A DNA stretch of 64,000 nucleotides from a virus, in the IMG/VR virus record IMGVR_UViG_3300042327_000544, positions 1-64,000 of that record, one strand, 5' to 3'. The notes under the pieces were generated by a model that saw nothing but the letters and a program-made list of their open reading frames with translations, had not been told where the DNA came from and ran no database searches. The position numbers were made by a program, and so were the translations under genes. The stretch's first letter is position 1. Every line of letters begins with the position of its first letter. This document shows, in pieces, positions 8,441-62,036 of the stretch.

Positions 8441-8725
8441 TTATTGGTCTTGCTGGCTACTAGGATCTGCGGGAAAAGGATCATGCCTGACTCCGTCTGG
8501 CAACACTTTAATCAGAACCCCATTCCTGCGCCCTATCTTGTGTTTTTCAACTATTAAAGACTTCATTTCATCATTAGCCTTTTTCAAAATAGGGATCTGG
8601 TCTTGACCATCTTCGTATGGATTAATTGCTCCCATAATTGCGTTAATAGCCTTCATTACAATCGCCTGTTGCTTTTCAATTTCTGCAAATCTTAAGGCAT
8701 CTTCTTCTGAGAATTCTGTGTTCAT
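8441..8725 (-). CDS. Helical hypothetical protein, paralog of N-terminus of 10489..10920
   Basis: EIEKQQ...MKSLIVEK vs EIEIQQ...MKSLVLEK. Confidence 0.7.
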   Translation of the reverse strand: MNTEFSEEDALRFAEIEKQQAIVMKAINAIMGAINPYEDGQDQIPILKKANDEMKSLIVEKHKIGRRNGVLIKVLPDGVRHDPFPADPSSQQDQ

Positions 8726-8727
8726 TT

Positions 8728-9630
8728 TTATCCTATTCTTCCAGTCTTAAAATTAATATTAGCATATCTTTCATATTCGTCAAGTGTCCTTTTGTCTCCA
8801 AGCGCCTGATACCCTACAATATTATTGCCCACAATCCTAGCCAACTCTGCTAAAGAATCTACCAGCAGATCTTCAACTTCCTTTTTAAAATAATTACCTG
8901 GCAATTTTCTCATACTCATATCTTCATTCTCTGAATTATAGTATAGGTGATATATATTATTTTTTCTAGGAATCAATAGGTCATACCCGTGTGTATAAAA
9001 TCTAACTGAGTATAATGTCTCTTCTCCCCAATGAAGTATTTTTTTGTTTGGCTCAATCAGATGAAGATCTCCTGGGCCAAATATCTGAGCTCCAGACACA
9101 CCTTTTGTAAATATATTACCTTCTTTGTTGTGCATAGAGGCCTGCGGTAATATTTTGTCTTTTAAAAATTGTGCTTGGGCTTCTGGGGTATTAGGGTACC
9201 CTATGTATGGTGTATCATCGTTTGGCAGATATTTAACTTGACCGTCTTCATAAAGATAGACCGCTGGGTATGTCGTTAAGATTGGATTGAGGCCTGCTTC
9301 TTTATAATATATATAATCTGATATTAAATGCTCGTCCCAATTTTCTTCAAACCTGCTATGCGAATCAATTTGAAAATAATAATCTTCTCCGCTATAAAAA
9401 GAATTCGCTATGAATCTTCCTATCCCTACCCCAATTTTATCTGGCGCAATAGACTCTTCAAACTTAATATTAGGCATATCTGGAATGCTAATTTTATCTT
9501 CTTTAAAATAACAATTAAATACTCCAAAGCTAATTGTGTGTTTCCCAGAAGACTTACTCATGCAGTCTAATATAGTTAACGGAAGTTCCCGATCTTGAAA
9601 AGAAGATATTTGTACAAATATACTAGACAT
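8728..9630 (-). CDS. GT60-like polypeptide/hydroxyproline O-GlcNAc transferase (Pfam GlcNAc-like)
   Basis: SIFVQISSFQDREL..TI, GEDYYFQIDSHSRFEENWD (DSH motif), ILTTYP, WGEE..S.RFYTHGYD, YHLY, RTLDEYE match the Gnt1/GT60 pattern. Confidence 0.82.
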   Translation of the reverse strand: MSSIFVQISSFQDRELPLTILDCMSKSSGKHTISFGVFNCYFKEDKISIPDMPNIKFEESIAPDKIGVGIGRFIANSFYSGEDYYFQIDSHSRFEENWDEHLISDYIYYKEAGLNPILTTYPAVYLYEDGQVKYLPNDDTPYIGYPNTPEAQAQFLKDKILPQASMHNKEGNIFTKGVSGAQIFGPGDLHLIEPNKKILHWGEETLYSVRFYTHGYDLLIPRKNNIYHLYYNSENEDMSMRKLPGNYFKKEVEDLLVDSLAELARIVGNNIVGYQALGDKRTLDEYERYANINFKTGRIG

Positions 9631-10489
9631 TTATTTCCTTTTTATTCTCTAAAAACATATTAAGGCAGTATCCCGATATAGTATTTGGATCTGCATAATC
9701 CATATTGTCGTAGTGTCCGTCTCTAGCATCAAATTTTGAATACATACCTACTCCGTGCCACTGATGTATATGAAATATTCCGTCTAAACTATCTGTTGAA
9801 AAGCAATTAGCATCAATGGAATCAGTAGTAATAAATTTTTCTTCATTAAATAAAGATGAAATAACAATTTCTGTAGCAATAAGCGTTGATGTTCCAGAAT
9901 ATAATGATTTTAGCCAAGTCTCTTCTATGGTGTCTCCATACTTGCCATCTGGGCATAGATAGTAAAATATATCCTTGCATAAAATATCAGAAAGACCCAT
10001 TACCCTGATAATGTCTGAAGAGGGACCAATTAATGTTGCACCCGCATTAAATATTTTTTTGTATCCCGAGTAATTAAATATATTTGCCAACTCATAGGTT
10101 TGCTCGATACATCTTTCAGTTAATGAATAGAATCCAGGCCTAAAAGAAATCTTGTCGTCAAATACATAATTATTTAAATTATTGGTAACAAAAACATCAG
10201 TGTCTGTTTTTATTAAGTATTTATATTGATTAAGTATATGTTTATTTGATTCCATAAACTTTAAAGATTTAGCATACCTATATGTTTCATAATACACATT
10301 CTTTGGAGACTCATACTCATATACTAACACGTTGTGTCTTTTTTTTATTTGACTGGCTATTTCAGGCTCTGCAAAAAGTACAAAAGTAAATCTTTCATCC
10401 AGATCTTTACCACTTAGGGTCATTTGATTTGCCTCATTTACAAAATTCCCGCCTTTATCTACAAAAGCCGTAATAGCTATTTTTGACAT
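9623..10489 (-). CDS. Putative GT-A fold glycosyltransferase
   Basis: YLIKTDTDVF DxD motif, C-terminal HIHQWH; start probably MSKIAI (TAATG overlap). Confidence 0.6.
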   Translation of the reverse strand: MSKIAITAFVDKGGNFVNEANQMTLSGKDLDERFTFVLFAEPEIASQIKKRHNVLVYEYESPKNVYYETYRYAKSLKFMESNKHILNQYKYLIKTDTDVFVTNNLNNYVFDDKISFRPGFYSLTERCIEQTYELANIFNYSGYKKIFNAGATLIGPSSDIIRVMGLSDILCKDIFYYLCPDGKYGDTIEETWLKSLYSGTSTLIATEIVISSLFNEEKFITTDSIDANCFSTDSLDGIFHIHQWHGVGMYSKFDARDGHYDNMDYADPNTISGYCLNMFLENKKEINV

Positions 10490-10920
10490 TACCAATTTCC
10501 TATAGGGCAAGTTGAGGACTCAAACGATGAATACTCTTTTGCAAATACGCCCAGCGGTTTGCATTGCTTAGATATTGTAACAAATTCTGGGCAATTTGTA
10601 CAGATAGAGTATCTGCTGTCTGCAACTTCTGGCCCAACCTCACCTTTTTCTATTTGTTTCCATAAACTCGTTTCCCTTAATGACTCGTTTACCGACCCAT
10701 TATCTGGCGTAAATCCCAAACTAATCATAATATCAATTTTTTCTAAAACTAGCGACTTCATTAGCAATGTTTTTTCATTGTAAATCTCTTGAGCAATTAA
10801 ATATGATTCATCATTTATTTCTTTTGTTATTGTGCTATAAAGTATTTTTATTTCATCATTTAATAATCTCTGCTGAATCTCAATTTCTTGTATTCTATTT
10901 AATTTATCTATATTTGTCAT
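10489..10920 (-). CDS. Coiled-coil + Cys-rich (DUF6171-like) protein
   Basis: RYSICTNC...QC...CPIGNW C-terminus. Confidence 0.6.
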   Translation of the reverse strand: MTNIDKLNRIQEIEIQQRLLNDEIKILYSTITKEINDESYLIAQEIYNEKTLLMKSLVLEKIDIMISLGFTPDNGSVNESLRETSLWKQIEKGEVGPEVADSRYSICTNCPEFVTISKQCKPLGVFAKEYSSFESSTCPIGNW

Positions 10921-10932
10921 TTTTTCTCCCTA

Positions 10933-13236
10933 TTATTGGTTAATGGTAATGTTTGAAGACTCAGTGTAAGCTGCCTCGTCAGATGTTCCAATTGTGTAAA
11001 TGGCGTTTCCATTGCTTACTCTGCTGCCTCTACCTTGAACTCCCATCCTGAAAGTACCGTTTGTAACGTCAGTATAAACATCGCTTCTAGGTGTCTCGTC
11101 AAACAGTGTATGTTTAACGTTTGCGGTTGAAGTGGTACGTTGTAGACGTGTATTCCACCATAAAAATGTAACACTTGTTCTTGTTGAAGTCCAGGTCATA
11201 GTTATAGTTCTACCACTGGCGCTTCTTCCTACGCTGTTTACTGTAAATACCGCTGCTGGCAAAGCAGTTGTCGTAGTAGTTGGAGCTGCGGTAGTCGTAG
11301 TAGTCGTAGTTGTCGTAGTAGTAGGTGCTGGAGTAGTTGTAGTAGTCGTAGTAGTCGTAGTAGTCGTGGTAGTCGTGGTAGTAGTTGGTGCGGGTGTAGT
11401 AGTAGTTGTAGTAGTTGTAGTAGGATTTGCTTCAGTTGTTGCTGTTGCAAATGCTGACCATCTGCTTACTCCAGTAGCGTTCTTTGAACGAACCCACCAC
11501 CAGTATTGTGTATTTCCAGCTAAACCAGTTCTATTAGAGCTAGTTACATTTCCTATTTCATAATCTTCTGTAGTGTTTTTATCTATAATGTCACTATAAT
11601 CTCCCACAGTACTATAATATAAATGGTAATTAGTTGGTGATCCTCCTGCTGCATTCCAAGCCAAATCAATTCTGCTATTAGACATTCTTGTTGCTGTAAG
11701 TCCAGTTGGTCTAGAGGGGAACTGTGGATTTACGTTAGATGTATTTTCAGAATAAGCCCCTTCATCTTCTGTTCCTATCGACCAAAAGTCATCTCCAGTG
11801 TAATCGCCTACACCATGTGCCTGAACCCCGAATCTATAAGAGGTCATTGTAAGTCCAGTTCCTCCGATGTCATTAAAAAAATCTGTAGTTTTATCTTCTG
11901 CATCTGTTGTATAAAATGTATGTTTTGCAGTTCCCCCTGTACTGGTATTTCTAAGTCTGGTATTTAGCCAAAGGAGAGTTACGTTGGTAGTAGCAGTTCC
12001 AAATTTTGTCCAGGTTCCGTCTATTCTTCTATATATATTAGAAACAGCAGTAGGCACTCTATTCTCAAGAGTCTCTACAACTGCAGTTATTGGCCCTAAG
12101 TTTGGAGTGCTATGCTGTATAGACACAGCTGATCCAAGTGAGGAATCGCTAACAAGTCTAATTAATTTACCTACAGCGGTCACATTAGTGCTTGTTCCGT
12201 CAAGATAAAATTTTGCTGGTATAACTACCGAGTGATCTTGGTTATGTGATGTATCAGTTCCGCTGCCCAGTACTGTCCCATCAGAGTTGTATATAGGTAT
12301 CCAGGCTGAACGGTTAGTATTATAGTACTGGAACATCCAATAAACTTTGTCTGGCTCTGGTGAGTATGTTCCAGTATTTGCTGTTATTGTATTGCCAATT
12401 TGTACACCAGTTGTTTTCCATGATGGCATCGTAACAATTACTGGGGCTGTTGCAATTGTACCAGTAGGAGTAGCCCAAGCACTGAATGTTGATCCACCAG
12501 TATTTACAGCTTTAATTCTTCCTGATATCTTATGTGTTAAATCATCCTCTGAAATTAAATATGTGCTGTCAGTGTAATCTGTGCGTATAGCTCCAGTATC
12601 TTCCCACTTCCATTCGTACTCAAAAAGAGATGAGTCTGGTGAAGTATCATTTGTTCTATCTGTAGTTACTTTCCAGTCGGGGTCTGTTTGTGCAAAAATT
12701 CCTACCGTCTGACCAGGTTGTGGGGATCCAGGAGAGGTTACTCCAATATAATATCCTCCATTAGTTGTTAGTGATACTGGAGCATACTTAACTATTTTAA
12801 CTGGTGTAGCATTTGCTTCGTTAAAAAGTGTGCCGTCTGATGCACGTACAGTTACTGTTATCCATTTACCATCATCATCATCTGTTGTTGTGTATGCCGC
12901 TGAAGTTGCTGCACCAATGGCTACGAATGGGCCTGCTTCTGCGTCTGATCTAACCCACTGTCTAGTAAAAGTAGTTGCGCCATCCCAGCTTCCATTTGTG
13001 CTGTCATATATATCAAACGTTTTTCCGCCTAATCTTGGAGTTATTGTTGGAGAGCTATTAAGTGATGGGCCAGCACCCAAAAAAACTTGCACCCATTTGC
13101 TTGTAGTGCCCACAAGTTTTTTTACATACACAGTAGCTAAAGATGTCCAGTTTCCATTCTTTTTTAAGTATATCTTCTTAAGCTGTACCCATTTGCTTGT
13201 GCCGTTTACGTCTTTCTTTAAATATGCTTTTGGCAT
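10933..13236 (-). CDS. Tail-fibre tip/adhesin with Ig-like and FN3 domains and mucin-like poly-Thr stalk
   Basis: Lys/Trp repeat N-terminal docking segment; Ig-like repeats (STNGSW..TRQW..ITVTV); FN3 (PTGLTA..LAW..GLAGNTQYWWWVRSKN); Thr tract; duplicated terminal domain. Confidence 0.75.
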   Translation of the reverse strand: MPKAYLKKDVNGTSKWVQLKKIYLKKNGNWTSLATVYVKKLVGTTSKWVQVFLGAGPSLNSSPTITPRLGGKTFDIYDSTNGSWDGATTFTRQWVRSDAEAGPFVAIGAATSAAYTTTDDDDGKWITVTVRASDGTLFNEANATPVKIVKYAPVSLTTNGGYYIGVTSPGSPQPGQTVGIFAQTDPDWKVTTDRTNDTSPDSSLFEYEWKWEDTGAIRTDYTDSTYLISEDDLTHKISGRIKAVNTGGSTFSAWATPTGTIATAPVIVTMPSWKTTGVQIGNTITANTGTYSPEPDKVYWMFQYYNTNRSAWIPIYNSDGTVLGSGTDTSHNQDHSVVIPAKFYLDGTSTNVTAVGKLIRLVSDSSLGSAVSIQHSTPNLGPITAVVETLENRVPTAVSNIYRRIDGTWTKFGTATTNVTLLWLNTRLRNTSTGGTAKHTFYTTDAEDKTTDFFNDIGGTGLTMTSYRFGVQAHGVGDYTGDDFWSIGTEDEGAYSENTSNVNPQFPSRPTGLTATRMSNSRIDLAWNAAGGSPTNYHLYYSTVGDYSDIIDKNTTEDYEIGNVTSSNRTGLAGNTQYWWWVRSKNATGVSRWSAFATATTEANPTTTTTTTTTPAPTTTTTTTTTTTTTTTTTTPAPTTTTTTTTTTTAAPTTTTTALPAAVFTVNSVGRSASGRTITMTWTSTRTSVTFLWWNTRLQRTTSTANVKHTLFDETPRSDVYTDVTNGTFRMGVQGRGSRVSNGNAIYTIGTSDEAAYTESSNITINQ
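11266..11421 (-). repeat. Poly-threonine coding tract (about T9-PAP-T18-PAP-T11-AAP-T5)
   Basis: (ACN)n with mixed ACT/ACG/ACA/ACC codons. Confidence 0.95.
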
Positions 13237-13245
13237 GATCTTACC

Positions 13246-15759: not shown

Positions 15760-15760
15760 A

Positions 15761-16684: not shown

Positions 16685-16692
16685 ATATCTCC

Positions 16693-17493: not shown

Positions 17494-17499
17494 TTTATT

Positions 17500-41381: not shown

Positions 41382-41391
41382 ATTATCTCCT

Positions 41392-41838
41392 TTAAACGTT
41401 TAAATCAGCGAATGCGTATGCACCGAATATTGTTGTGCCACCGTCTCTTGTCATAAAGTTAAGAACGGTTGTATTTGTAGATAGAAGTGGTGCTACGTTA
41501 GAAGCTCCTCCACCATCCCACTTAATTGATGCTGGCCATGTAACTGTATAGCTACCACCAGTTTTAATTTCTAGTTGCCAGAATTGTGCTTTTGGCTCTG
41601 TTCCTGTTGCTGGAATATTGCTAAATGCTACTGTGCAGTTTCCGCCTGCAACCATCTTAAATACGTTTGCTAGTGCTACGTCGCATGTTGCAACTCCTGA
41701 AGCTGCAATTGTTCCAAGATCTAGCTGTGCTGATGGCACATTAAGATATGGACGTGCTTGTCCGTTAAGAGGTGCTTGAAGGTATGTGTATGTCCAAAGA
41801 CCTGGGGTTACCTGTTGAGGTACGCTTGTTATTGGCAT
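41392..41838 (-). CDS. Fibre-associated small structural protein (paralog of 51415..51780)
   Basis: GGSYTVTWP..P.L..VLNFMTRDGGT. Confidence 0.6.
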   Translation of the reverse strand: MPITSVPQQVTPGLWTYTYLQAPLNGQARPYLNVPSAQLDLGTIAASGVATCDVALANVFKMVAGGNCTVAFSNIPATGTEPKAQFWQLEIKTGGSYTVTWPASIKWDGGGASNVAPLLSTNTTVLNFMTRDGGTTIFGAYAFADLNV

Positions 41839-41840
41839 TT

Positions 41841-42122
41841 TTATTCCTCCTCTTGAGCACGTAGAGGTGGCAAAGACTCTGGTCTTGGTCCCTTAGTCTC
41901 AGATTCATCCTCATCCCATGCTTCTTGTGCTGCTGTTACTGAAGCAATTGCCTCATCATGCTCAATTACCATGATCTCACGATCTGTCTTTCCTGGATAT
42001 TTATCCACAACTACTCCGTTGACTAGGCTAAATCTATGAATTAGATTTGTTTCAACAACTTCATGATCCCCATCTACGTCAATTGCGACAACATTTTGTG
42101 GTCCACAGAACTTTATTTTCAT
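41841..42122 (-). CDS. Small acidic hypothetical protein
   Basis: 93 aa, AGGAG RBS. Confidence 0.65.
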   Translation of the reverse strand: MKIKFCGPQNVVAIDVDGDHEVVETNLIHRFSLVNGVVVDKYPGKTDREIMVIEHDEAIASVTAAQEAWDEDESETKGPRPESLPPLRAQEEE

Positions 42123-42138
42123 TTTTTTCTCCTTTTCC

Positions 42139-43722: not shown

Positions 43723-43731
43723 TTTTTCTCC

Positions 43732-45990: not shown

Positions 45991-46055
45991 ATTATAGCAT
46001 AACTGTTTTTATTGTTTAGTACCCCGCCTTGCCTATAACACTCTTAATTATACCC
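45991..46055 (-). promoter_or_regulatory. Two tandem -10 boxes
   Basis: TGCTATAAT at 45991-45999 and GGGTATAAT at 46047-46055. Confidence 0.5.
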
Positions 46056-46094: not shown

Positions 46095-47045
46095 TTAGAG
46101 AATTCCTCCATAGTATAAGGTTATGCCCATCAAGACCACTGGGATCACCAAAGCAAAAATTGCCTTATAGTAATCTTTGAGAGGGGTTCTAAAGTAGCTC
46201 TTACCTACAACTAAACACTTGTGTGCTGGAGACAACATATATCCTGCGTAGTCAACTGCAAAGAATAGCGGCAAAGTTTCTATGCCAAATACTCCTACTG
46301 AGAGGACGACAAATCCAGCAAACTTGCTAGAACTTCCCAAGGCAAAACTTGCCAAGAATCCAGCAAAGGCAACTAGGATCAATAAATTATTTTTGTGTGC
46401 GCCTTCTATCCATGCATTTATGGTGTCAAAATTAGCCTTGACAATATTGCTCAAGATAATGACAATGCCAGTAAAAAGAAGAACTCTAGCGTAGTCAATC
46501 AACTGCTTACGGTCACGCTTTGCGTCTGCTTCAATTTGAGCAGGCTGCTTATCCTTTTTCTTCAAAGCCTTTTCTGGAATATTAATTTCAATATCATCTT
46601 CTTTTAGAATTCTAAATATATAGAATAAAATAACAATGACGGCTGTAGCAAGCAATGGCCAAACTCTACCCATTAGCTCCCAATAACTAATACTTAGTGC
46701 CGCCATTGGAAGAAGAACTGTTGCTTCTAGCGGAGACCAAAAATAAAAATGATGCGTGGAAAGGTAATCGATGATTCCATAATTTTTACGCTTCTTTTGA
46801 TCTTCTGGGGCAATTGTATCTAGGGCTCCAGCCGAGATGGCAACACGCCCTGAAATGGGCAGAACTCCAGAGAACATTGATATTAGAGCAACTACTGCTC
46901 TCTTAGACTTAACTGTTCTAGAGATCCAGCTATAAAATGGCAAAAAGACTTGAGTCTTTTTTGCGGCAAATGACAGCCCCATTACCGAAGCCAGTAATAT
47001 CAAGAACTGTTGATTGTTTGTAATTAAACTACTTGTTATTTCCAT
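46095..47045 (-). CDS. Multi-pass membrane transporter (DUF401/IT-superfamily-like)
   Basis: Many TM segments; GVLPISGR, THHFYFWSPLE, GYMLSPAHKCL. Confidence 0.65.
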   Translation of the reverse strand: MEITSSLITNNQQFLILLASVMGLSFAAKKTQVFLPFYSWISRTVKSKRAVVALISMFSGVLPISGRVAISAGALDTIAPEDQKKRKNYGIIDYLSTHHFYFWSPLEATVLLPMAALSISYWELMGRVWPLLATAVIVILFYIFRILKEDDIEINIPEKALKKKDKQPAQIEADAKRDRKQLIDYARVLLFTGIVIILSNIVKANFDTINAWIEGAHKNNLLILVAFAGFLASFALGSSSKFAGFVVLSVGVFGIETLPLFFAVDYAGYMLSPAHKCLVVGKSYFRTPLKDYYKAIFALVIPVVLMGITLYYGGIL

Positions 47046-48687
47046 TGCTTTCCACCACTGCTATGTAAAGTCCGTTCCACCAATCGGATTCGGATTCTAA
47101 TGAATTTAATACTTTCTTACTATACAATATTTTTAATCCTGATTCAAGTATCCCCTTGTGGGCACCTTTTACAACATCCGTCCAGTTTGCGTCATCGAAT
47201 ATTAAAATAGACTGTCTGGCAAAAGTTGCGGAATAATACTTTACTGCATTTTTTGTAGACTCAAAATCGTGTGGTCCATCATAAAAGAAAAGATCAATAT
47301 CCGATATGGGCTTTAGGTTAACCTTAAACATATCTGAATTAGATATAAATACTTTATTATTACCTCTGTATGGATTAATGTTTTTCTTAAACTCTTCTAG
47401 GGAATTGGTGTCTGGTGTTTCCCACCCTTCTCTTACGGCCTGTGGAGCCTCCTGCCAGGTGTCTACAAAGTATGCCTGCAAGTTATTACCACTCAATGCT
47501 GCAGCGGCTGTAGCACCCTGATAAGAACCAATTTCGAGGTATTTAGAAGAAGACTTAGCCAAACCATTTATCAATGACTGAACTCTAGTCGATGTTAAAC
47601 CTGGTATATTAATTTCAATTGGGTTATTTACAGAATCAACTAATTGCTGTGCAACAATGGCGACCTTTGGACTAATATGATTGCCATATTTTGCAGCCAT
47701 TATTTTGTCACAATAACCACAATCCCAGCAATCAAATTTACAATTTTTGATCTTATTACGCCAGATGGCAATAGGCTTGTCAACCATATTAGTCTCTTCA
47801 ATAAAATCATTAAAGCTATCAAATAAAATTTCTTCATTATTTGCATACCTCTTAATTATTTCCATGGTTTCTTTTAGCCTTGTATGAGACTCTCTTCCGT
47901 GCATCTTTATAACATCAATGCCTAGGTCGTCTATAAACTCCTGCCAGTCTTCACGCCATGGTGGAAAATTGGCTGTCTTTAAAGATACGGCAAAATCTTC
48001 GTGATCCCATTTAGGACAAGACACTCTGCTTATTGGGTCATTAAAATATTGAGGTCCGTCTGTTCTAGTATTATTAAACTGATAATGCTCATCCATCATT
48101 ACGCATCCGCCGTAGCACCCTTCATTGGCAAGCAAGGATATCTTAACGCCGAACTGAGATTTAGCTTTTTTAAAACGCTTTAGCTTCTCGTGATCACGCA
48201 TTAAATCTCTATCAAGATTAATATAATCAAATCCAGCTTTTGCAAGGTGCTCTATGTCCCTTGGCTCTGACACATTTCTGAGAATGGTATTTTTTACAAA
48301 TAGATCTGGAAATGCCTTTTTTATTTGTCCTGTTGCCATCCAGTGTGTATGAGGTATTGTTGCTGACTTAATACCCGAATCGTATACGGGTCTAAAGTTT
48401 TCTATAAACAAATCTAAATTCTGTTGAGAGGGTCTAACTTGTATATTATTAAAAACGGCAGAAGCGGTTACCCCAGTCTCGTTTTGAATATGTAGGGCCA
48501 GGCCTATAAGATAATTATGGTCTTCTTCTCCGCCGTTAAATACATCACCCATGGCGTCTTGGTCAAAAGGAGATACCCTACAGGTAAAATAAAAGTCATA
48601 TATAAATGACTTATATTCTTTTAGAAAAGAAATAAACTCATTTAGCTGATTTTCAGTTAGCTTGGGGTTTAGTGGTACGCTAAACAT
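47029..48687 (-). CDS. U32-family Fe-S enzyme fused to class I SAM methyltransferase
   Basis: LLANEGCYGGC..H, SC, DVIKMHGRE, CKFDCWDCGYC; then YLEIGSYQG, DTW, DLFFYDGPH, IFDD. Confidence 0.75.
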   Translation of the reverse strand: MFSVPLNPKLTENQLNEFISFLKEYKSFIYDFYFTCRVSPFDQDAMGDVFNGGEEDHNYLIGLALHIQNETGVTASAVFNNIQVRPSQQNLDLFIENFRPVYDSGIKSATIPHTHWMATGQIKKAFPDLFVKNTILRNVSEPRDIEHLAKAGFDYINLDRDLMRDHEKLKRFKKAKSQFGVKISLLANEGCYGGCVMMDEHYQFNNTRTDGPQYFNDPISRVSCPKWDHEDFAVSLKTANFPPWREDWQEFIDDLGIDVIKMHGRESHTRLKETMEIIKRYANNEEILFDSFNDFIEETNMVDKPIAIWRNKIKNCKFDCWDCGYCDKIMAAKYGNHISPKVAIVAQQLVDSVNNPIEINIPGLTSTRVQSLINGLAKSSSKYLEIGSYQGATAAAALSGNNLQAYFVDTWQEAPQAVREGWETPDTNSLEEFKKNINPYRGNNKVFISNSDMFKVNLKPISDIDLFFYDGPHDFESTKNAVKYYSATFARQSILIFDDANWTDVVKGAHKGILESGLKILYSKKVLNSLESESDWWNGLYIAVVESNGNNK

Positions 48688-48692
48688 TTATC

Positions 48693-49250
48693 CTACAAAT
48701 CTATTTTTGATAAAGTATCCGCATCATAATGAACGCCAAAATGATTATTTAATAGTATACCAGCTTCTACCCAATCTTGGCAAGAGATGATCTTTTGATA
48801 GATTTCATTCTTTTTATTTAAATGAAACTTTTCACATTTATAGTCGTCCTGCTTTAAAAACTCTGGTGTAGATTTTAATAACAAAAGTTTATTTGAATAG
48901 TATTTTTCTAGCATGAATATCATTGCAGCTTTTTGAAAAAGACAGGCGTTTTTCTTATCTTCTTCTGTCAAGACATATTTAAACTTTTCCCCTACTTGCT
49001 CAAAAGGGCCTTCTCCTAGCTGAGCCTTGTGCAAAGTGTTATCTCTAAGCTTTATATAGCCTTTGTACTTCCCAACAAATTGGTATGCCAGCGCAACCTC
49101 TTTTGGAACAACAACTAAATTAGGTAGCTTTAGATAAAGCATTTGCTTTTCATCAACCGACCCAATCAGTAGATTACTCCATTCTCCTATATGCTGAATA
49201 TAGTTATTACGATCCGTCTTATCTTCTGGATCAAATAAAAAATATATCAT
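48693..49250 (-). CDS. Hypothetical protein
   Basis: 185 aa, ATGA-coupled. Confidence 0.7.
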   Translation of the reverse strand: MIYFLFDPEDKTDRNNYIQHIGEWSNLLIGSVDEKQMLYLKLPNLVVVPKEVALAYQFVGKYKGYIKLRDNTLHKAQLGEGPFEQVGEKFKYVLTEEDKKNACLFQKAAMIFMLEKYYSNKLLLLKSTPEFLKQDDYKCEKFHLNKKNEIYQKIISCQDWVEAGILLNNHFGVHYDADTLSKIDL

Positions 49251-49978
49251 TGAATTTCTTCCCAGAGTCCATTCTCTGAATCGGCAAGCTCTAATCTTTT
49301 TCTTGTCTCTATTTGCAATGCATCTAGGTGTTTATTTGTTTCTATAGCTTTAACAACTGCAGTTTCAAGAGCTATTTCTCTAACTTCTTTTGGCAATTGA
49401 TCAATGGCCTCCATGTTTCCGCCATTAACTCTTCCATAAAACATTAAGTCGTAAGCTGCTTGCGCTCCTAGTCTAATTCCCCAAAGCTCTGCCTCAAGCC
49501 TTTCTTCTTCATCATGATCTCCAATTATATCCATAATCAGTCTACCGTCAGAAAGTCTACCCTCATCAGAAGAGTTAAATTTATCTATTAGCATCATATA
49601 CTTATCTCGTTCTTCGTATACTAAGCTGACACTATTTTTTTGATTTAACAGAACTCTTTCTTTTTCTTTAATATTAAGCTCATGAATTTTAATTTCTGTA
49701 GGAGAAGTAGAAGTGCTAATTCTTTCTTTTTCTAAATCAATTTCTAGTCTAGTTCTTTCTATTTTAAGCTCTTGCTCTACAATCGTATTCTCTCTTGCTC
49801 CTAGCTCAAGCAAAAGCTGTCTAAGTTTTCCAAATGGAGTAAATTGCGCTCCACCAACAAAATTATCTATTTTAAATACTGGCACCCCCCAATGTCTATT
49901 TGTAGCATAAAGAAGAATATCTTTTTGTGATTTTGTATAGCCAGAAACATCCGACGTTATATCGTTTATATATCTCAT
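49247..49978 (-). CDS. Coiled-coil protein of a type seen next to phage fibre genes
   Basis: NFVGGAQFTPFGKLRQLLLEL, YW-like ELWGIRLG, GRVNGGNM. Confidence 0.6.
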   Translation of the reverse strand: MRYINDITSDVSGYTKSQKDILLYATNRHWGVPVFKIDNFVGGAQFTPFGKLRQLLLELGARENTIVEQELKIERTRLEIDLEKERISTSTSPTEIKIHELNIKEKERVLLNQKNSVSLVYEERDKYMMLIDKFNSSDEGRLSDGRLIMDIIGDHDEEERLEAELWGIRLGAQAAYDLMFYGRVNGGNMEAIDQLPKEVREIALETAVVKAIETNKHLDALQIETRKRLELADSENGLWEEIQ

Positions 49979-49993: not shown

Positions 49994-50914
49994 TTAAGAA
50001 CGTTGTGCTGAGTAGCCAGAACTTCTTCCTGGAACTCCCTTAGACTGCATTGATCCTCCGCCTTCAAAGCCAGAATCTGTAGCGTAGTTAAATCTCCAAG
50101 ATCTGTTATTTTGCTCTCCGTTATAGTTTCCAAGCATGTATTGCCATGCTTGTCCCATATCAAAATTTTCTTCACCACAATTTGTAATTGGCTTTCCAAC
50201 TAATCCTATATTTGTTTCAGTAGCAACGCTAAATCTTCTTAAGTTGTTTCCACCTGCATAGTTACCCTCATTACCTGCGTATAGAGTAGTTAACTTTGAA
50301 GAAATTCCTTTTTGTTGTCCGTGAACGCCATTGCAAGGTGATGCAGCTTGAGTTTCTGTTGCAAAAGTTAATTTAACACCATTATCATCTCCATAGTGAA
50401 AACCTTTTGTTTCATGATAAAAAGATGACATTGTTTGAGTGTTGGATCCAAAGCTTTTGCCAAGTGAACTCATCCAAGACTGTGTTGTGAAATTAAACTT
50501 CATAATTGCTGCTACACCTACTTCGCCTGGTGCACCATATGCGTACAGTTGCTCTTGATGCATAATTGTTCCTGAATTTCCTACTGCATATGGGGCGGAA
50601 GGACCAACAATTGATGTGTTTGTTCTCATATTGTAACGATTGGTTTGCGAGCTTGATCCTCCAACTTGATTATTGGCTTTAAGAAGATAGGCAAATGTAT
50701 CATCACACATTCCACCAGGATATCCACTAGAGTTATTTAGCGGACCACCCAAATCAACTGTTGTATCAGTTGAGTGTGTTACTTCGTTAACGCTTGTCCA
50801 TGGCGAACTGTTTCTATATCCAGCAAGCACGTAACCCTTTGTAATAACCTGTCTCAAAAGAAATGCTACGGGCCCACCTGAACCAGACATATATCTATTT
50901 TGCGGAAATGGCAT
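49994..50914 (-). CDS. Beta-propeller-like fibre tip protein
   Basis: Repeats of G[YF].. ..[KR]F.[FY]ATET/D. Confidence 0.6.
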   Translation of the reverse strand: MPFPQNRYMSGSGGPVAFLLRQVITKGYVLAGYRNSSPWTSVNEVTHSTDTTVDLGGPLNNSSGYPGGMCDDTFAYLLKANNQVGGSSSQTNRYNMRTNTSIVGPSAPYAVGNSGTIMHQEQLYAYGAPGEVGVAAIMKFNFTTQSWMSSLGKSFGSNTQTMSSFYHETKGFHYGDDNGVKLTFATETQAASPCNGVHGQQKGISSKLTTLYAGNEGNYAGGNNLRRFSVATETNIGLVGKPITNCGEENFDMGQAWQYMLGNYNGEQNNRSWRFNYATDSGFEGGGSMQSKGVPGRSSGYSAQRS

Positions 50915-51415
50915 TTAAACCTCCACAGTATATTTTAGTTTGACTGAAGCAATTCCTAATGTGGGCCATGTGATATTAAATGGGTTTGTTTGTTCTGTAA
51001 TATCTCTTAAAGATTGTCTATATGCAATAATCTTTTCTTGATCTGAATCTGAAAAAGAAGAAAATACATCTGGCATAACTAAGTAGTCTGTTGCGGTAAT
51101 AGTGTTATCTCTATGATATTTTACTAGATTCCACTGATTTGCTATTACTTCTGCTTTTTCTTCATTTGATAAATCAATAAGCACATATGAGCCTTTAACT
51201 TTTTTGCCAGTAAGGGCTCTTTCAAAAGAAACTTTCTTTTTAGTTGGATCGAATGATGGGGTTTCTGTTTCATCTTCACATATATACCAATTATCAAAGC
51301 CTTCAAGGTGTGATTCTAAAATTGGTGAAGGGAAATGTGTTGAAGGATACATCTCTCTTAGCTGTTGTTCATTTACAATTTGAGTAATATGCTTATCAAT
51401 AACTTGTGCGTACAT
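50915..51415 (-). CDS. Tail fibre assembly chaperone-like protein
   Basis: W..V...RD..I..TD, YRQSLRDITEQ..PFNITWP. Confidence 0.75.
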   Translation of the reverse strand: MYAQVIDKHITQIVNEQQLREMYPSTHFPSPILESHLEGFDNWYICEDETETPSFDPTKKKVSFERALTGKKVKGSYVLIDLSNEEKAEVIANQWNLVKYHRDNTITATDYLVMPDVFSSFSDSDQEKIIAYRQSLRDITEQTNPFNITWPTLGIASVKLKYTVEV

Positions 51416-51780
51416 TATCGTGAGTCCTTCATTGATATTGATCCTCGCCAGTTTGTTCCATTATCGTATGTAATAAATGTTATAACATCGATTCCTCCAG
51501 AAGTGAGGGCTGGGGCTGTAGCTCCTGGATATTTTGCATTTGCAAATGTTATTGTGTATGCTCCTCCGCCAGTTAATTGTAGAGAGAAAGAAACAACTCC
51601 AGTTGTCGGGGTATTGACAATAGTAAATGTTGTTGCTGCTGTTACTGTGCAAGTAAAGTCATTTGATAGGGCTAGGTCTAGATTGACTGCGCCTGAGCGA
51701 GAGCCAAGGTCTAGCCTTCCAGTCTTATATGTATTAAGAGATCCTACTTGGTCTCCGATAACATCGCTTAGTAGTGCCAT
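51415..51780 (-). CDS. Fibre-associated small structural protein
   Basis: LDLALSNDF, PALTSGGIDVITFITYDNGTNWRG; start by TAATG overlap. Confidence 0.65.
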   Translation of the reverse strand: MALLSDVIGDQVGSLNTYKTGRLDLGSRSGAVNLDLALSNDFTCTVTAATTFTIVNTPTTGVVSFSLQLTGGGAYTITFANAKYPGATAPALTSGGIDVITFITYDNGTNWRGSISMKDSR

Positions 51781-52445
51781 TACATTACTCTCCATCCTTG
51801 AGCTGTATTTGAAAATACTAGAGTTGCAGCTTTGCTTTTTACGTTAAAGACTAGGTCTTCAGCTACACCTGCTATTAGGCTTCCGTTTCTTGCAATTGTA
51901 AAGTTTGTTGTCTGTGAAGTTCCTGCTGAATCTACAACAATAACTGTATCTCCAATTGAAGGAGCTGCTGGCAATGTAACAACAAGACCTGCTGCTGGTG
52001 TTACAAGAAGTCTATCTCCTCTAACTGCTGTATATGAAGAAGTTATATTTACCCAAGTATTTGGGATCTTTCCAGCAACTAGGGAAGATAATCCTGTAAC
52101 CGTTGAAGCAAGAGCGGAAATTTCTCCCCCAGCTGTGCTTACATAGTTTTCAGTTGCATATATTCTTGTCTCGTGATCAGCAATATCGGCTTCAGCGTCA
52201 GTAATTCTTTGTCCGTTAACTGAGCTGTTAATTGATGTAATAGCTGCATCTCTTGCCGCATTAATAGCAGCGATTCTTTCGGTTGTAATTGAAAGAATAT
52301 CGTTAACGCCCATAGATTTTGCTAATGTATCAAGTGCTGAGGCCAGCAAAACTAGGTCGTTTGCGTCTAAAGTTGTGGATGCAAGAGCGCTTACCTTTGT
52401 CTTAAATAGTTCAACCTGAGTTTGCAGTGTTGTATAATCTGGCAT
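51780..52445 (-). CDS. Short fibre/adaptor with T4 fibre-like C-terminal domain
   Basis: Coiled coil then VTLPAAPSIGDTV..TIARNGS..GW. Confidence 0.7.
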   Translation of the reverse strand: MPDYTTLQTQVELFKTKVSALASTTLDANDLVLLASALDTLAKSMGVNDILSITTERIAAINAARDAAITSINSSVNGQRITDAEADIADHETRIYATENYVSTAGGEISALASTVTGLSSLVAGKIPNTWVNITSSYTAVRGDRLLVTPAAGLVVTLPAAPSIGDTVIVVDSAGTSQTTNFTIARNGSLIAGVAEDLVFNVKSKAATLVFSNTAQGWRVM

Positions 52446-55951: not shown

Positions 55952-55966
55952 ATTAGTTAGTCTCCC

Positions 55967-56584: not shown

Positions 56585-56603
56585 ATTTGATTACCTCTCC
56601 ACT

Positions 56604-56609
56604 ATTATA
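56604..56609 (-). promoter_or_regulatory. -10 box
   Basis: TATAAT upstream of GGAGAGG RBS. Confidence 0.45.
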
Positions 56610-56623
56610 CAACATATCTTTTA

Positions 56624-58504: not shown

Positions 58505-58524
58505 ATGGTTGCACCTCTTTCCTT

Positions 58525-58533
58525 ATTATACCC
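58525..58533 (-). promoter_or_regulatory. -10 box after oxygenase cassette
   Basis: GGGTATAAT then AGAGG RBS. Confidence 0.5.
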
Positions 58534-58552
58534 TAAATGCTTTTTTACCTAT

Positions 58553-59203
58553 CTATAGAACTTTAGAGACTTGCCCCTGGTATCTGCCATGCTCTTTATG
58601 GTTTCTGTCGTTATATGAAAACATTGTTACCGCAGCATACTTTATACCAGACTTTACTGGAAGAGCGGCGTGTGCAAAAAGATAGCTAGACGGAAACAGC
58701 ACAATGTCTCCGTATTGAGGAACATAGGTATAATCAAGGTGAGGGAAGTATAATTCTCCGCCCTCATAGTCGCTATTTAAATACATAACAGTAGATACGT
58801 CGCATGAATAGCTTGGACCGCTGTCTGGGTGTGTTTTAAAATGCTGACCTTCTCCATAACGAACAAAGTTTATTGCTTCCATATAGTGTAATGCATTTGT
58901 ATTGTAGGCCTGCATATAATCCCTTAAACACTCTTGAAGATTTTCTGTTATTTGATCATGAACCGATATTATTTCGTCAGACAGTTCATTTCCTGGCCTT
59001 AAAGATTCCCTTTTAATTTTAAAATCGACACAATCTCTGTAATCTAATTTTTGTACGTGGTCTCCAACTGTAGCAACCGACCATTTAAACATTGAGCTTT
59101 TACCTGAACTCAAGACCTTTTCTAGCCTTGCTGGAATGTTCATTGCTTCTGGCAAAGCGTTTCTGTATATCTTTATTCCAATTGCGGGTGTGTCGATTAT
59201 CAT
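58553..59203 (-). CDS. 2OG-Fe(II) oxygenase, prolyl-4-hydroxylase-like
   Basis: Y..GQHF..HPD, YLNSDYEGGEL.F, FPS...H...PVKSG.KY. Confidence 0.9.
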   Translation of the reverse strand: MIIDTPAIGIKIYRNALPEAMNIPARLEKVLSSGKSSMFKWSVATVGDHVQKLDYRDCVDFKIKRESLRPGNELSDEIISVHDQITENLQECLRDYMQAYNTNALHYMEAINFVRYGEGQHFKTHPDSGPSYSCDVSTVMYLNSDYEGGELYFPHLDYTYVPQYGDIVLFPSSYLFAHAALPVKSGIKYAAVTMFSYNDRNHKEHGRYQGQVSKVL

Positions 59204-59219
59204 AATTTCTCCTTTTATT

Positions 59220-59810
59220 TTAGACTAAGGGTATCCACTTTTGTGAATACTGATTTTTTATTTCTGATAGCGGGCTTACGTAAAACACTATAGATTTAAA
59301 TTTATTAGAATAAACAATTTTATTGCCCGCCTCTGAAATAATAATTTCTCCAGGCTCTATCTCAAATTCTTCTTCATTAATTAATAATTTTGTTTTTTCT
59401 GAGTCTAGGGAAATTATTCCAAACATTGAAGGTCTTGATGTCCCACCAGCATCATACCATAAAGAAGGATCCTGGTCTTCAATTAATGAAGAGTAAATAA
59501 AATATTTATTTTTTAAGTAGCTAAGCTGATACTTTTCACATGCATTTTTTACTAATAGATATACTTTTTGAAAAAGAAAATACATTTGTTCGTCATGCAT
59601 AAAAAATGGATTGTAATTATTTTTATCGTATACTTTAACATCTTTTCCATTAGAATGTGGAAAATCATAGATTTTTTCAGACTTATCTAATTCATTTATT
59701 ATTTTTTCATATAGGCCTAGTGTGTCAAACTTATCTTTAACTGAAATTGTTTTTCTTTTTTCTCTGTATATAACGTTTTCGTTTTTATTTTGACTTTCTA
59801 TATTAATCAT
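59220..59810 (-). CDS. Degenerate DSBH/2OG-oxygenase-like protein
   Basis: YNPF, WYDAGG, EIEPGEIII pattern; Fe-binding His not evident. Confidence 0.4.
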   Translation of the reverse strand: MINIESQNKNENVIYREKRKTISVKDKFDTLGLYEKIINELDKSEKIYDFPHSNGKDVKVYDKNNYNPFFMHDEQMYFLFQKVYLLVKNACEKYQLSYLKNKYFIYSSLIEDQDPSLWYDAGGTSRPSMFGIISLDSEKTKLLINEEEFEIEPGEIIISEAGNKIVYSNKFKSIVFYVSPLSEIKNQYSQKWIPLV

Positions 59811-60333
59811 TTTTAACCTCTACGTAAGAAACTCCAACAATCATTTCTCCAGAGGAAACTTCAGAAATCTTATATTTGTATTCTTCTGAAGATGGAAAAA
59901 TTATTAAATTACCTTTTGATAGGGGTATAGAAATATCTTTGTTTAAGAATGTAAGACTAGATCCAGTGTGGTTGCTATTTACCACATAAATAATTGATAT
60001 AGTATCTATTAGTCCTGGGTTTAAAAACTCTTGTAGGTATGATGTTTCTGGAATTATTTTTAAAAAAACATTCTCTATTGGATAAACAAATTCAAGGGAC
60101 CTATCATGAAGATAAGAATTTATTTCAGAAATATAGCTAATATATAACCTTCTATTTTCTAAATTTAAATTTTTAAAGTTTGTTGTCTTAATGACACCCT
60201 CTTTAAAACCATTGACTCTTTCTATCCATGCAATCTCTTCAAAGTTTGAAAGCATAACTTGAAGATCTGTGTCTCTTATGTATGAAAAACTGTATACACT
60301 TATATCCTGCTCTGAAAATATTTTATTAACCAT
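59803..60333 (-). CDS. Degenerate 2OG-Fe(II) oxygenase-like protein
   Basis: ISIIYVVN..TGSSLTF..KGNLIIFPS..YKYKISEVSSG; lacks HxD and distal H; start MVNKIF after GGAGG. Confidence 0.6.
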   Translation of the reverse strand: MVNKIFSEQDISVYSFSYIRDTDLQVMLSNFEEIAWIERVNGFKEGVIKTTNFKNLNLENRRLYISYISEINSYLHDRSLEFVYPIENVFLKIIPETSYLQEFLNPGLIDTISIIYVVNSNHTGSSLTFLNKDISIPLSKGNLIIFPSSEEYKYKISEVSSGEMIVGVSYVEVKND

Positions 60334-60871
60334 TGCTTCCTCCTGGTCTGTGACCATGCCAGACATCTGGATAAGCTGGATCTCTGGGTGGATCAATATC
60401 AAACACTGATATTGATGATCTTTGTTCTAATGGAACATCTTTTATTGCTTCTTGCCACATATCTTTAACTAATTTAGTAGCCTTTTCAGTTTTTTCGCTT
60501 CTATCTAGAGGGACATCTAGAATTACATTTAAGTAGTCACTAAATATTGCTCTAGCAACTAATCCAGAAATTCCCAGTAGGCCCATTTTCCTATACTTTG
60601 GATTCACATAAACTCTTTCGTTTCTTCCATTCTTATTTACAGTGCAATATAGATCGGGATAAATTGTAGGTAAATAGTCTGAAACAATAACAGTATTTTC
60701 TGGGTGTATGTCATTAAAATAAATTGCGCTTACGTATTTTATAGATGAATGATTTAATTTTGTAACATGTATCCAAGAGCCTTTTAATTCATTAGGCATT
60801 GCAGAAAATACGGGCACAAGGCTTTCTCCGACCCTTTTCATATCTATAATGTTATATTGCGCTTGAGTCAT
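60326..60871 (-). CDS. Putative GNAT acetyltransferase
   Basis: ERVYVNPKYRKMGL resembles GNAT motif A. Confidence 0.55.
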   Translation of the reverse strand: MTQAQYNIIDMKRVGESLVPVFSAMPNELKGSWIHVTKLNHSSIKYVSAIYFNDIHPENTVIVSDYLPTIYPDLYCTVNKNGRNERVYVNPKYRKMGLLGISGLVARAIFSDYLNVILDVPLDRSEKTEKATKLVKDMWQEAIKDVPLEQRSSISVFDIDPPRDPAYPDVWHGHRPGGSNG

Positions 60872-62036
60872 GAGTTAGCATCCTTTCTGTAAAGAACATG
60901 TCGTATGGTTCACAGTTTATAGAAATAATATCGTGGGGGGCTTGAACTATTTCGTAAAGATAAATTGATTCCCAGCTGCTGGTGTCGTATGAATAAACTA
61001 GGTCAGTTTCTTTAACTATATTTACGGAAGTTTCAAATTTAGCAACCCCGTCTCTTTTAATTAAAACATAGTGGTACTGGGAAAATATGTCCTCGTTAAT
61101 TACAACCGCATATGCAGATTGAGTTTTATATAAAGCTACAATATTTGTAATTTCTGGAATAATATTGGGGTCGTTATCTGACCAAGCAATGGCTTGAGCC
61201 GTTACACCTTCTTCACTTTCATAAGGGAACCCTTCAATATTTGCAGACAAGAGTGTATCTCCTACTTGCAAATCTCCTGCTTTAACAAGACCGTCAGTAG
61301 TTCTAACTAAGGTTGTAATGCCCACACTTTTGCCACCAAAACTAAATAGTGCGCTGAGGTCAAGGTTAGTAAGATCTCCAGAGCCTCCAAAAAGTGGTGT
61401 GTCAAATGCTGGTGGTTCGTTAAATGCTGGTGGTTCGTTAAAGCCTGGGTTAAAGCCTGGGTTGAATCCTGGGTTGCCGAATCCTGGGTTAGGATTATAG
61501 GAAACGGTAAATTCAGGCAACAATGGAACTCTTCCATTATAAACTTGAATATTTCTAGACCCTTCTCCACTTAATAAAAATGAAACTGCAATACTGCTCC
61601 AAGACCAGCTTTGGTAAGGAATGTTTGTTCCATTTACTGCAATATTTGTGGGCTCAGTTGGAAAAGATCCGCTGATAATAACTGTTGTTCCGTTCCAGGT
61701 ATATGAGCTAATAGAAGATGTTTGTGGTGGATCTGGTGGGGGAGCAAACCCTGGATTAAATCCTGGATTAAAATTGGGTGGAGCTACATAACCATAATAT
61801 GTAAACCCTATGGTATCTCCAATTTTTACTACCGAGCCAGAAGCAACTGATTGTTCTTTTATATTTAGATCAAGATTTATATTTGCTGTAGACTCTGCTG
61901 TTTCTTGCCAAGTAAGCCCTCTTGATTCCAGTTCTTGTTTTGCCTGAGCTCTTGTTAGCCCACTAAGACTGGGCACATTAACCTTTCTTATTCCAATTTT
62001 ACTTAGTAGACCAATTTTACGAAATCTTCTGGCCAT
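60852..62036 (-). CDS. PASTA + IPT/Ig-like + NPGF repeats + C-terminal Hint domain protein
   Basis: VPSLSGLTRAQAKQELESRGL..EQSVASGSVV (PASTA); K|SVGITTLVRTTDGLVKAGDLQVGD, SQYH, IISINCEPYDMFFTERMLTHD (Hint blocks). Confidence 0.8.
   Translation of the reverse strand: MARRFRKIGLLSKIGIRKVNVPSLSGLTRAQAKQELESRGLTWQETAESTANINLDLNIKEQSVASGSVVKIGDTIGFTYYGYVAPPNFNPGFNPGFAPPPDPPQTSSISSYTWNGTTVIISGSFPTEPTNIAVNGTNIPYQSWSWSSIAVSFLLSGEGSRNIQVYNGRVPLLPEFTVSYNPNPGFGNPGFNPGFNPGFNEPPAFNEPPAFDTPLFGGSGDLTNLDLSALFSFGGKSVGITTLVRTTDGLVKAGDLQVGDTLLSANIEGFPYESEEGVTAQAIAWSDNDPNIIPEITNIVALYKTQSAYAVVINEDIFSQYHYVLIKRDGVAKFETSVNIVKETDLVYSYDTSSWESIYLYEIVQAPHDIISINCEPYDMFFTERMLTHDSSAI
61404..61496 (-). repeat. Tandem 12/18-bp coding repeats (NPGF)n-(NEPPAF)2
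   Basis: Seen directly; second NPGF cluster near 61745-61775. Confidence 0.9.

Follow-up and report, generated by a model that had tools for sequence, protein, structure and literature searches.

Do the enzymes encoded directly behind the fibre genes of a phage act on the appendage proteins whose genes they follow? The question is raised by a stretch of DNA, here called the window, that comprises positions 1 to 64,000 of IMG/VR virus record IMGVR_UViG_3300042327_000544, a single viral contig whose full length is 86,979 bp and which IMG/VR lists as linear and some 80% complete. The source is an uncultured freshwater (lake) phage, probably with an actinobacterial host, since homologues are labelled Micrococcales and one of its proteins carries a PASTA domain. 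A megablast search with 20 kb against 50,697 phage records found no close cultured relative, only 48-nt capsid matches. A preliminary description of the window proposed that three genes for fibre tips are each followed by a cassette of modifying enzymes, that tip and enzymes are exchanged as a unit, and that the chemistry of the enzymes matches the low-complexity tract of the tip, Thr being O-glycosylated and Pro hydroxylated, so that the whole forms one system for decorating the virion surface.

That reading is partly supported. Repeat-rich appendage proteins do travel with enzyme-like genes as inherited units, and in relatives all three blocks are gained or lost whole. They are unrelated modules with different histories, however, and not one modification system. 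The explanation favoured here, to which we give about an even prospect of being right, is that three unrelated, horizontally mobile accessory modules lie behind tail and fibre genes and tailor the appendages in the ways proposed below. All the open reading frames (ORFs) named for the three cassettes were found, all are on the minus strand, and they are tightly packed, with gaps of −22 to +16 nt between neighbours. Genes are named here by their lower coordinate.

A poly-threonine stalk and a GT60-like transferase

The candidate substrate of the first module is a protein of 767 amino acids (10933..13236, minus strand, as is every gene of the three modules), the last large protein of the tail/baseplate module. 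It has an FN3/Ig-like domain and a duplicated terminal domain, and between them lies a poly-Thr tract punctuated by PAP (amino acids 601–657), in which 43 of 52 residues are Thr, specified by mixed codons. It is the sole such tract in the proteome and its length differs among close relatives. It is a putative fibre protein, with a weak Ig_J_second match and a place at the end of the tail module, and position would make it a fibre tip, as it would the 49994 product of the third module.

Behind it come a 143-residue protein of family phrog_13558 with a coiled-coil N-terminus and a Cys-rich C-terminus (10489..10920), a DUF7164 protein with a DTD motif (9623..10510), a GT60-like glycosyltransferase (GT) with a DSH metal motif (8728..9630) and a protein of 94 amino acids (8441..8725). 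Of the two glycosyltransferases originally proposed, 8728 stands: its product matches PF11397 (‘GlcNAc’) with a score of 115.6 bits, where the cut-off is 21 (E 4.7e-33), and a genome search gave a PF11397 match likewise in relative G005. Read from the sequence alone, the D-x-H/D metal motif of the GT-A type is IDSH in the 8728 protein and IDAH in a homologue from the distant locus L154. The 9623 product is a putative second glycosyltransferase, and a literature search on DUF7164 returned nothing. Neither GT gene gave anything useful when compared with PDB sequences.

The slot was surveyed in 12 IMG/VR relatives that share the upstream gene for an 837-residue protein. Three of them (L005, L006 and L007) have the poly-Thr protein, the 143-residue protein, the GT60-like gene and the 94-residue protein, with DUF7164 missing from L005. 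Eight of the remaining nine have a single protein of 1,032–1,098 amino acids, with no poly-Thr and no GT, and in most of those eight there is an additional gene of about 75 codons; the ninth, L009, ends inside the 837-residue anchor gene, and the slot is absent from its sequence. In G001, a 100%-complete relative, there is no PF11397 match anywhere and no poly-Thr. The 94-residue protein is gained and lost together with the cassette. Counted as slot variants, the window, L005 and L006/L007 have both tract and GT, and five others have neither. The joint presence and absence of poly-Thr and GTs fits co-inheritance.

The generality of the pairing was sampled in 40 records of viral contigs encoding at least 14 consecutive Thr. 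One, L154, has a PF11397 match. It is an independent, distant locus, in which a GT60-like gene, 37% identical to that of the window, lies 1.5 kb downstream of a poly-Thr protein appended to a fibre. The order there is a fibre gene, a 184-residue protein (FN3, a poly-Thr plus Pro-rich tract and a Cys-rich end), a 10489-like gene, a gene whose product resembles radical-SAM proteins, the GT60-like gene and two oxygenase genes. The recurrence counts because cultured phages very seldom have a GT60-like gene: 1 of 50,697 records matches.

Two features of the neighbouring genes may be recorded here. The radical-SAM-resembling product of L154 (L154:1865-2914, 349 amino acids, between the 10489-like and GT60-like genes) has a CxxxCxxC motif and a Cys-rich C-terminus and resembles radical-SAM/SPASM proteins. 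Members of the 10489 family recur at the ends of fibre modules, and a Cys-rich C-terminal motif, C.xCPE...CxxCGC...CPxGKW, is present in the last gene of several fibre modules or modules with a bacterial intein-like (BIL) domain (window 10489-10920, L020:7178-7405, L023:6784-7014 and L154:1614-1886); small proteins with this end may be zinc-ribbon assembly factors.

Two kinds of known system invite comparison. In Dictyostelium, Gnt1 (GT60/PF11397) acts on a hydroxyproline of Skp1 after a prolyl-4-hydroxylase (P4H) has made it. The T. cruzi counterpart TcOGNT1, a GT60 enzyme, makes GlcNAc-alpha-O-Thr on mucins, and the PF11397/GT60 members known so far transfer GlcNAc to polypeptides (PMC9472816). 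The window resembles them in its strong Pfam match, its D-x-H motif and its Thr-rich, Pro-punctuated candidate acceptor, and in L154 a P4H-type oxygenase adjoins the GT60-like gene as if in the Skp1 pathway; it differs in being viral and in a bacterial-host setting, and in that the GT-bearing relative G046 is without PF13640, the P4H-type oxygenase family. A requirement of the GT60-like enzyme for a P4H was considered and found unsupported: G046 has the GT and no PF13640 match on 85.7 kb, and G001 has eight PF13640 genes and no GT. Glycosylation of virions by phage-encoded GTs is established, as in mycobacteriophage Che8 and its relatives (Freeman 2023, via PMC11256854 and PMC13313380). As in the O-glycosylation of Che8 type, the phage GTs would be expected to work in the cytoplasm of an actinobacterial cell and to decorate structural proteins of the phage itself. 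In the mycobacteriophages the GT genes lie far from those of their substrates, the major capsid proteins (PMC11256854), whereas here the GT60-like gene is directly behind the gene of a distal tail protein whose poly-Thr stalk is mucin-like.

A hypervariable protein with a BIL end

The second module directly follows a tail fibre gene (62037..63383) whose product has an Mtd_N N-terminus and matches many tail-fibre PHROGs. Its first gene (60852..62036) encodes a 394-residue protein that has a PASTA domain (E 4.9e-8), a small middle domain flanked by NPGF/NEPPAF repeats and, at the C-terminus, a BIL (Hint) domain; its place after a fibre gene and its PASTA domain make it a candidate fibre tip. Both the PASTA and the Hint assignments of the preliminary description were borne out. 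A profile of the C-terminal family matches BIL domain 2LWY (E 6.4e-6) and, less well, the gp41-1 intein (E 0.027), and K24-S25, S107-x-x-H110 and H177-D178-S179 are invariant among 28 sequences of 40–87% identity. It is a narrow family: 5.8 billion proteins contain 59 clusters of it, and IMG/VR has 181 relatives of the BIL protein.

The middle region is hypervariable, with more than ten repeat types: NPGF, SPGF, PADPSF, poly-Pro, PPSG, FFPP, NYGN, NYSN, YYNP, FGAFGA, PFGFTP and PTGP. Among loci L137, L141 and L144 some have 15–16 copies of FGAFGA, resembling nucleoporin FG repeats, and others up to 58 overlapping PPPP words.

What accompanies the BIL protein was surveyed in 44 dereplicated IMG/VR variants with enough flanking sequence. 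Downstream of the BIL gene there is a 60326-family gene in all 44, a 59220-family gene in 42 and a 58553-type oxygenase gene in 23. The first partner (60326..60871, 181 amino acids) has a conserved R-x-x-G after strand 4 in a putative GNAT-like fold. All 50 best VIA matches of its AlphaFold2 (AF2) model (pLDDT 81) are of the GNAT superfamily, with Z just 5.4–6.5, and include enzymes with aminoacyl-tRNA ester donors; a Foldseek search with the model gave no match at E≤0.001. The CoA-binding motif Q/R-x-x-G-x-G/A is not that of the family, which keeps R94-x-x-G97 alone invariant and has no G/A at the last position. The modelled fold thus weakly supports calling 60326 GNAT-like. A relationship to fibre chaperone 50915 (pairwise E 0.003) was too weak and was not used. 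The second partner (59220..59810) has 196 amino acids; its family lacks an invariant His and matches nothing by sequence.

Three genes with the fold of 2-oxoglutarate (2OG) oxygenases had been described in this module, and one of them holds up. It is 58553 (58553..59203), an accessory gene for a prolyl-4-hydroxylase-type 2OG-Fe(II) oxygenase (PF13640, 2OG-FeII_Oxy_3, E 1.4e-13, 52 bits against a cut-off of 27) with the HxD...H iron ligands present as HPD...H; a genome-wide scan with PF13759 also touches 58553 alone. The 59803 gene (59803..60402) encodes a weak, degenerate double-stranded beta-helix (DSBH) paralogue of 58553 in which the HxD...H ligands have become I-P-E...Y, and 59220 is the partner already mentioned, whose family has no invariant His. 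The ESM Atlas provides leads only: 27% of one cluster is labelled Acetyltransf_1, and 14% of a second one 2OG-FeII_Oxy_5. Comparison with Pfam, NCBIfam and PDB sequences yielded no useful match for 60326, 59220 or 59803, nor for 48693, 49247 and the U32 part of 47029 in the third module.

If Pro in the stalk were the target of the oxygenase, the two should vary together among the 44 variants. They do not (p=0.39): the oxygenase is absent from variants with 16–27 PPPP words and present in Pro-free NYGN/NYSN variants. The proposed match between proline and hydroxylation fails this test. Repeats that contain aromatic residues are always accompanied by some DSBH-type gene (23/23 versus 7/21 for others, p=1e-6 on raw counts), yet on a tree of the Hint domain that association comes down to 2–5 independent contrasts, too few to decide. 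The universal partners accompany the BIL domain and not any particular repeat type, from which we conclude that it is this conserved end of the protein that they serve and that the oxygenases can be dispensed with.

Six of the eight PF13640 genes of G001 (the complete, 109-kb contig of locus L016) form one tandem cluster at about 61.3–66.7 kb. In three other loci (L023:5161-6784, L027:6296-7036 and L033:4056-4781) the same inter-fibre slot has one or two genes for proteins of 220–245 amino acids with weak DUF6065 matches and the conserved motifs CIPF..D and P.NR.DLPF; in BIL loci such genes accompany FGAFGA and PFGFTP repeats.

The nearest known system is the BIL domains of the Hint superfamily, for example that of C. 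thermocellum (PDB 2LWY), which the window protein resembles in its profile match, in a nucleophile at position 1, in [ST]xxH and a terminal H-[ND] followed by Ser, and in that the domain is part of a hypervariable, surface-type protein. It differs in having Ser and not Cys at position 1, in lying at the extreme C-terminus with a tail of about four residues, in belonging to a phage fibre region, in being missed by the Pfam Hint models, and in its GNAT-like (44/44) and 59220-family (42/44) companions.

A U32-like enzyme fused to an O-methyltransferase

The third block begins with genes for a small tail fibre protein (51415..51795), gained or lost with the cassette in close relatives, and a tail fibre assembly chaperone (Phage_tail_APC, 50915..51415). 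Next is ‘tip 3’ (49994..50914), a Gly/Ser/Asn-rich protein of 306 amino acids that belongs to phrog_1417, the family of cyanomyophage T4-GC 351 (‘sericin-like’). It had been called propeller-like; two Kelch models, PF24681 and PF13418, find nothing in the genome. It is followed by a 243-residue coiled-coil protein of phrog_1409 (49247..49978), conserved with the enzyme in cyanophages and Ralstonia phage RP31, a protein of 185 amino acids (48693..49250), a 552-residue fusion of a U32-like TIM barrel with a YrrM/TrmR-type O-methyltransferase dependent on S-adenosylmethionine (SAM; 47029..48687), and a multi-pass membrane permease of DUF401/TIGR00529 type (46095..47045; DUF401, E 3.8e-9), in agreement with the transporter expected there.

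The fusion had been described as a U32-methyltransferase. Its methyltransferase half is secure, the C-terminal domain being Methyltransf_24 (E 1.6e-10) and several homologues being labelled YrrM by JGI. The U32 half is carried by fold. The N-terminal 345 residues give a TIM barrel in the AF2 model (pLDDT 92.8), whose best VIA match is the U32 protein Mk0906 (5D88; Z 16.8, root-mean-square deviation 3.1 over 222 residues; the next match has 13.2), and Foldseek ranks 5D88 second. Seven Cys are invariant in the family, candidate ligands of a 4Fe-4S cluster, and the N-terminal part probably binds iron–sulphur (Fe-S).

In a survey of 48 dereplicated IMG/VR variants, one to three copies of tip3-family genes precede the enzyme in 47; 47 have a phrog_1409-like gene, 44 a 48693-like gene and 33 the permease. 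The pair of small fibre gene and chaperone gene is confined to the 10 closest relatives. Among close relatives the whole block, 51415 and 50915 included, is present or replaced as a unit, and within it 49994, 49247 and 48693 diverge faster (39–66% identity) than the enzyme and permease (86–99%). At eight distant loci the gene directly upstream of tip3 is clearly a tail-fibre gene in two (L329 and L309) and a large structural-type gene in most others. The U32-like/methyltransferase module is in at least 541 IMG/VR contigs. In L318 (L318:283-3552) the N-terminus of a fibre-type protein of 1,089 amino acids matches the N-terminal part of phrog_1417 that is missing from the window tip3, a match that hints at an attachment domain common to tip3-family and fibre proteins.

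Full-length homologues of 47029, with 42–44% identity, are in 121 cyanomyophage records. In Syn19, P-SSM4 and S-H25 the homologues of 49994 (T4-GC 351), 49247 (T4-GC 353) and 47029 (T4-GC 354) follow a fibre gene in the same order. The likeness to the T4-GC 351–354 cluster (Syn19_043-046, PSSM4_032-035), all of whose genes are annotated hypothetical, is thus near-collinear, with the counterpart of 49247 being T4-GC 353 and not 352. The cyanophage clusters differ in a tip3 homologue about 160 amino acids longer at its N-terminus and in the insertion of denV before the permease, as in S-H25, where the permease comes after denV. The Ralstonia jumbo phage RP31 has a U32-like gene of the stand-alone kind next to a phrog_1409 gene and the permease, the three being flanked by a collagen-like fibre gene and the gene of a virion structural protein. 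A literature search for links of cyanophages to peptidase U32 or to sericin found nothing.

Known U32 Fe-S enzymes include TrhP, RlhA and UbiU/UbiV, and TrhP together with TrmR/YrrM provides a route to 5-methoxyuridine. The 47029 protein is like them in the U32 barrel as best fold match, in its invariant Cys and in the fused YrrM-type O-methyltransferase. It differs in an extra CxxxCxxCxxC motif, in the lack of a PF01136 match, and in the company that its gene keeps, with tip3-family and phrog_1409 genes, usually after fibre genes and in many cases a permease. No match of chemistry to tract can be stated for this module.

Gene layout, promoter signals and base composition

All long ORFs between 2.2 and 69 kb are on the minus strand, and the window has no tRNA gene. 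Transcription would pass from the fibre genes at 66–52 kb through fibre-like modules at 46–40 kb to the head genes and the tape measure gene; after the 2,275-residue tape measure protein come minor tail proteins and then the 837- and 767-residue proteins. The fibre-like modules (window 40220-45294) contain two paralogues of about 53% identity, 43732-45294 and 42139-43722, followed by 41841, 41392 (32% identical to fibre gene 51415) and 40926 (26% identical to chaperone 50915), so two further fibre-plus-chaperone modules directly precede the head genes. In relatives without cassette 3 its slot is filled by a third 43732-like copy.

That each cassette ends at a TATAAT hexamer was confirmed, but not that the hexamer marks cassettes in particular. 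Minus-strand TATAAT sites are at 8431, 45991, 46047 and 58525, 17–76 nt 5′ of the next start codon. The first (8431..8436), TGaTATAAT, is an extended −10 element that lies 17 nt ahead of gene 8196-8414; that at 58525..58530 (gGGTATAAT) is 21 nt upstream of fibre gene 56624-58504; and the other two (45991..46052) share the 123-nt gap after cassette 3. The minus strand has 39 TATAAT in 69 kb, 13 of them inside just 1,654 intergenic bases, an enrichment of about tenfold that marks them as genuine punctuation. For nine sites a late-gene start codon follows within 60 nt, 56604, 45319, 33527 and 29488 being among them, and a promoter at the end is therefore not special to the cassettes. A generic sigma-70 scan found fewer two-hexamer sites than in shuffled sequence. 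An intergenic (TG)nTATAAT series without a good −35 element (8431, 29488, 33527, 45319, 45991, 56604 and 58525; 17–30 nt before late-gene starts) is probably a class of phage late promoter.

The AT-richness ascribed to cassettes 1 and 2 proved to be a property of their enzyme genes. GC content is 0.31–0.34 for the cassette 1 genes at 8728–10920, compared with 0.39–0.41 in the flanks, and 0.27 for 59220 and 0.30 for 59803, among the lowest in the genome; the tip genes themselves and 58553 are normal. The difference suggests separate origins for tip and enzymes.

How the modules may act, and what else could explain them

On the favoured explanation, all three modules would be read through from the upstream fibre genes, and the steps that we infer for each are as follows. 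Module 1 would be a mucin-like decoration of a distal tail protein with a poly-Thr/PAP stalk. The cytoplasmic GT60-like transferase most likely O-glycosylates the stalk before assembly, the DUF7164 protein possibly extends the glycan, and glycosylation would make this stalk, on which the terminal domain is displayed, stiffer or shield it. Module 2 would be a self-processing adhesin with a wall-binding PASTA domain, a hypervariable low-complexity stalk and a BIL end whose probable site of cleavage is the invariant Lys|Ser junction. The GNAT-like and 59220-family proteins would be its obligate partners, more likely to act on the processing step or its product than on the repeats, and the oxygenase 58553 and its dead paralogue 59803 optional add-ons. 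Module 3, with one to three tip3-family proteins, two small proteins, the U32-like Fe-S enzyme fused to the O-methyltransferase and often a permease, probably adds first a hydroxyl and after it a methyl group, a logic suggested by the fusion of a U32-like barrel to a YrrM-type O-methyltransferase; the co-travelling tip3 protein is the best candidate target.

Several observations weigh against this explanation. For module 1, the co-variation is within one phage group and may reflect a single evolutionary event; 39 of the 40 poly-Thr records lack PF11397, so that poly-Thr has no general need of this enzyme; the GT genes are far more AT-rich than the poly-Thr gene and were therefore acquired separately; and DUF7164 as a GT is putative only. 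For module 2, the Pfam models Hint_2 and PT-HINT (PF13403, PF07591) have no match in a genome-wide scan, Ser for Cys at position 1 and Asp for Asn at the end could mean slow or no processing, PF00583 (GNAT) finds nothing genome-wide, and the Z-scores of 60326 are below the level safe for a fold match. For module 3, PF01136 (U32) has no match in the genome at E≤10 and none among 41 diverse homologues, TIM barrels match promiscuously, a permease does not sit easily with the modification of virion proteins, and tip3 is a putative virion protein only.

A bolder version of module 2 can be imagined, in which the BIL domain and its GNAT-like partner are a protein-ligation device that attaches PASTA-stalk adhesins covalently to the phage particle. 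The Hint domain would turn the Lys|Ser junction into an ester, and the GNAT-fold protein would transfer the fragment with PASTA domain and stalk to an amine, either of a second virion protein or of the cell wall, a role suggested by the use of esters such as aminoacyl-tRNA by members of that superfamily; cassettes 1 and 3 would then be parallel, independent chemistries that tailor fibre appendages. We regard this version as a long shot.

The alternative that survives best is that fibre-gene junctions are hot spots that accumulate accessory genes, or morons, whose enzymes act on host targets in the envelope, metabolism or nucleic acids or on nothing related to the virion, their adjacency to the tips being accidental. 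The AT-rich enzyme genes beside tips of normal composition would suit such cargo, as would the permease, the 39 poly-Thr contigs without GT60, the P4H-type oxygenases scattered irrespective of cassette (8 copies in G001, 7 in G008) and the unrelated DUF6065-like genes housed in the same slots of relatives. Cargo of this kind would not, however, be expected to keep the strict linkage of BIL with GNAT-like genes and of tip3 with the U32-like/methyltransferase gene across wide divergence, nor to lose poly-Thr and GTs jointly or to repeat their pairing in L154, and we think it unlikely, though to be taken seriously.

Less well placed is the model of the preliminary description in full, in which each set of enzymes modifies the low-complexity tract of the tip that it accompanies, Thr being glycosylated, Pro hydroxylated and acetylated, and tip 3 hydroxylated and methylated, as one swappable virion-surface system. 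The inheritance of the three blocks as units speaks for it, as do the fit of GT60 chemistry to Thr (PMC9472816), the aromatic-repeat association in its raw counts, and L154, where a poly-Thr/Pro-rich protein is joined by a GT60-like gene, a P4H-like gene and other oxygenases. Of its matches between chemistry and tract, that of Thr with the GT60-like enzyme is the one supported, and it is retained in the favoured explanation. The independence of the oxygenase from Pro in the repeats, the few contrasts to which the aromatic association reduces, the lack of catalytic residues in two of the three ‘2OG’ genes, and the loyalty of the universal partners to the conserved BIL domain make the model as a whole improbable.

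That the cassette 1 transferases instead modify another virion protein, a component of the host envelope or a small molecule, with poly-Thr a mere flexible linker, would agree with the many viral ORFs that have such linkers without this GT and with the differing base composition of GT genes and tip, but known members of the enzyme family act on polypeptides (PMC9472816), the genome has no other comparable Ser/Thr tract, and tract and GT are lost jointly and paired again in L154, so it is very improbable.

Implications

Post-translational modification of phage structural proteins has barely been explored beyond the glycosylation of mycobacteriophage capsids, and in this single genome three compact candidates that lend themselves to testing lie immediately behind fibre genes. 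The cassette 3 module is also in about 120 cultured cyanomyophages, where genetics is feasible. If the explanation favoured here is true, functions would be assigned to several large families of ‘hypothetical’ phage genes, and if the ligation version of module 2 is true, it would be a new way to attach swappable adhesins covalently to a phage particle. Modules that tailor receptor-binding appendages, if that is what these are, would add a layer to the evolution of host range and to the resistance of virions to antibodies and proteases.

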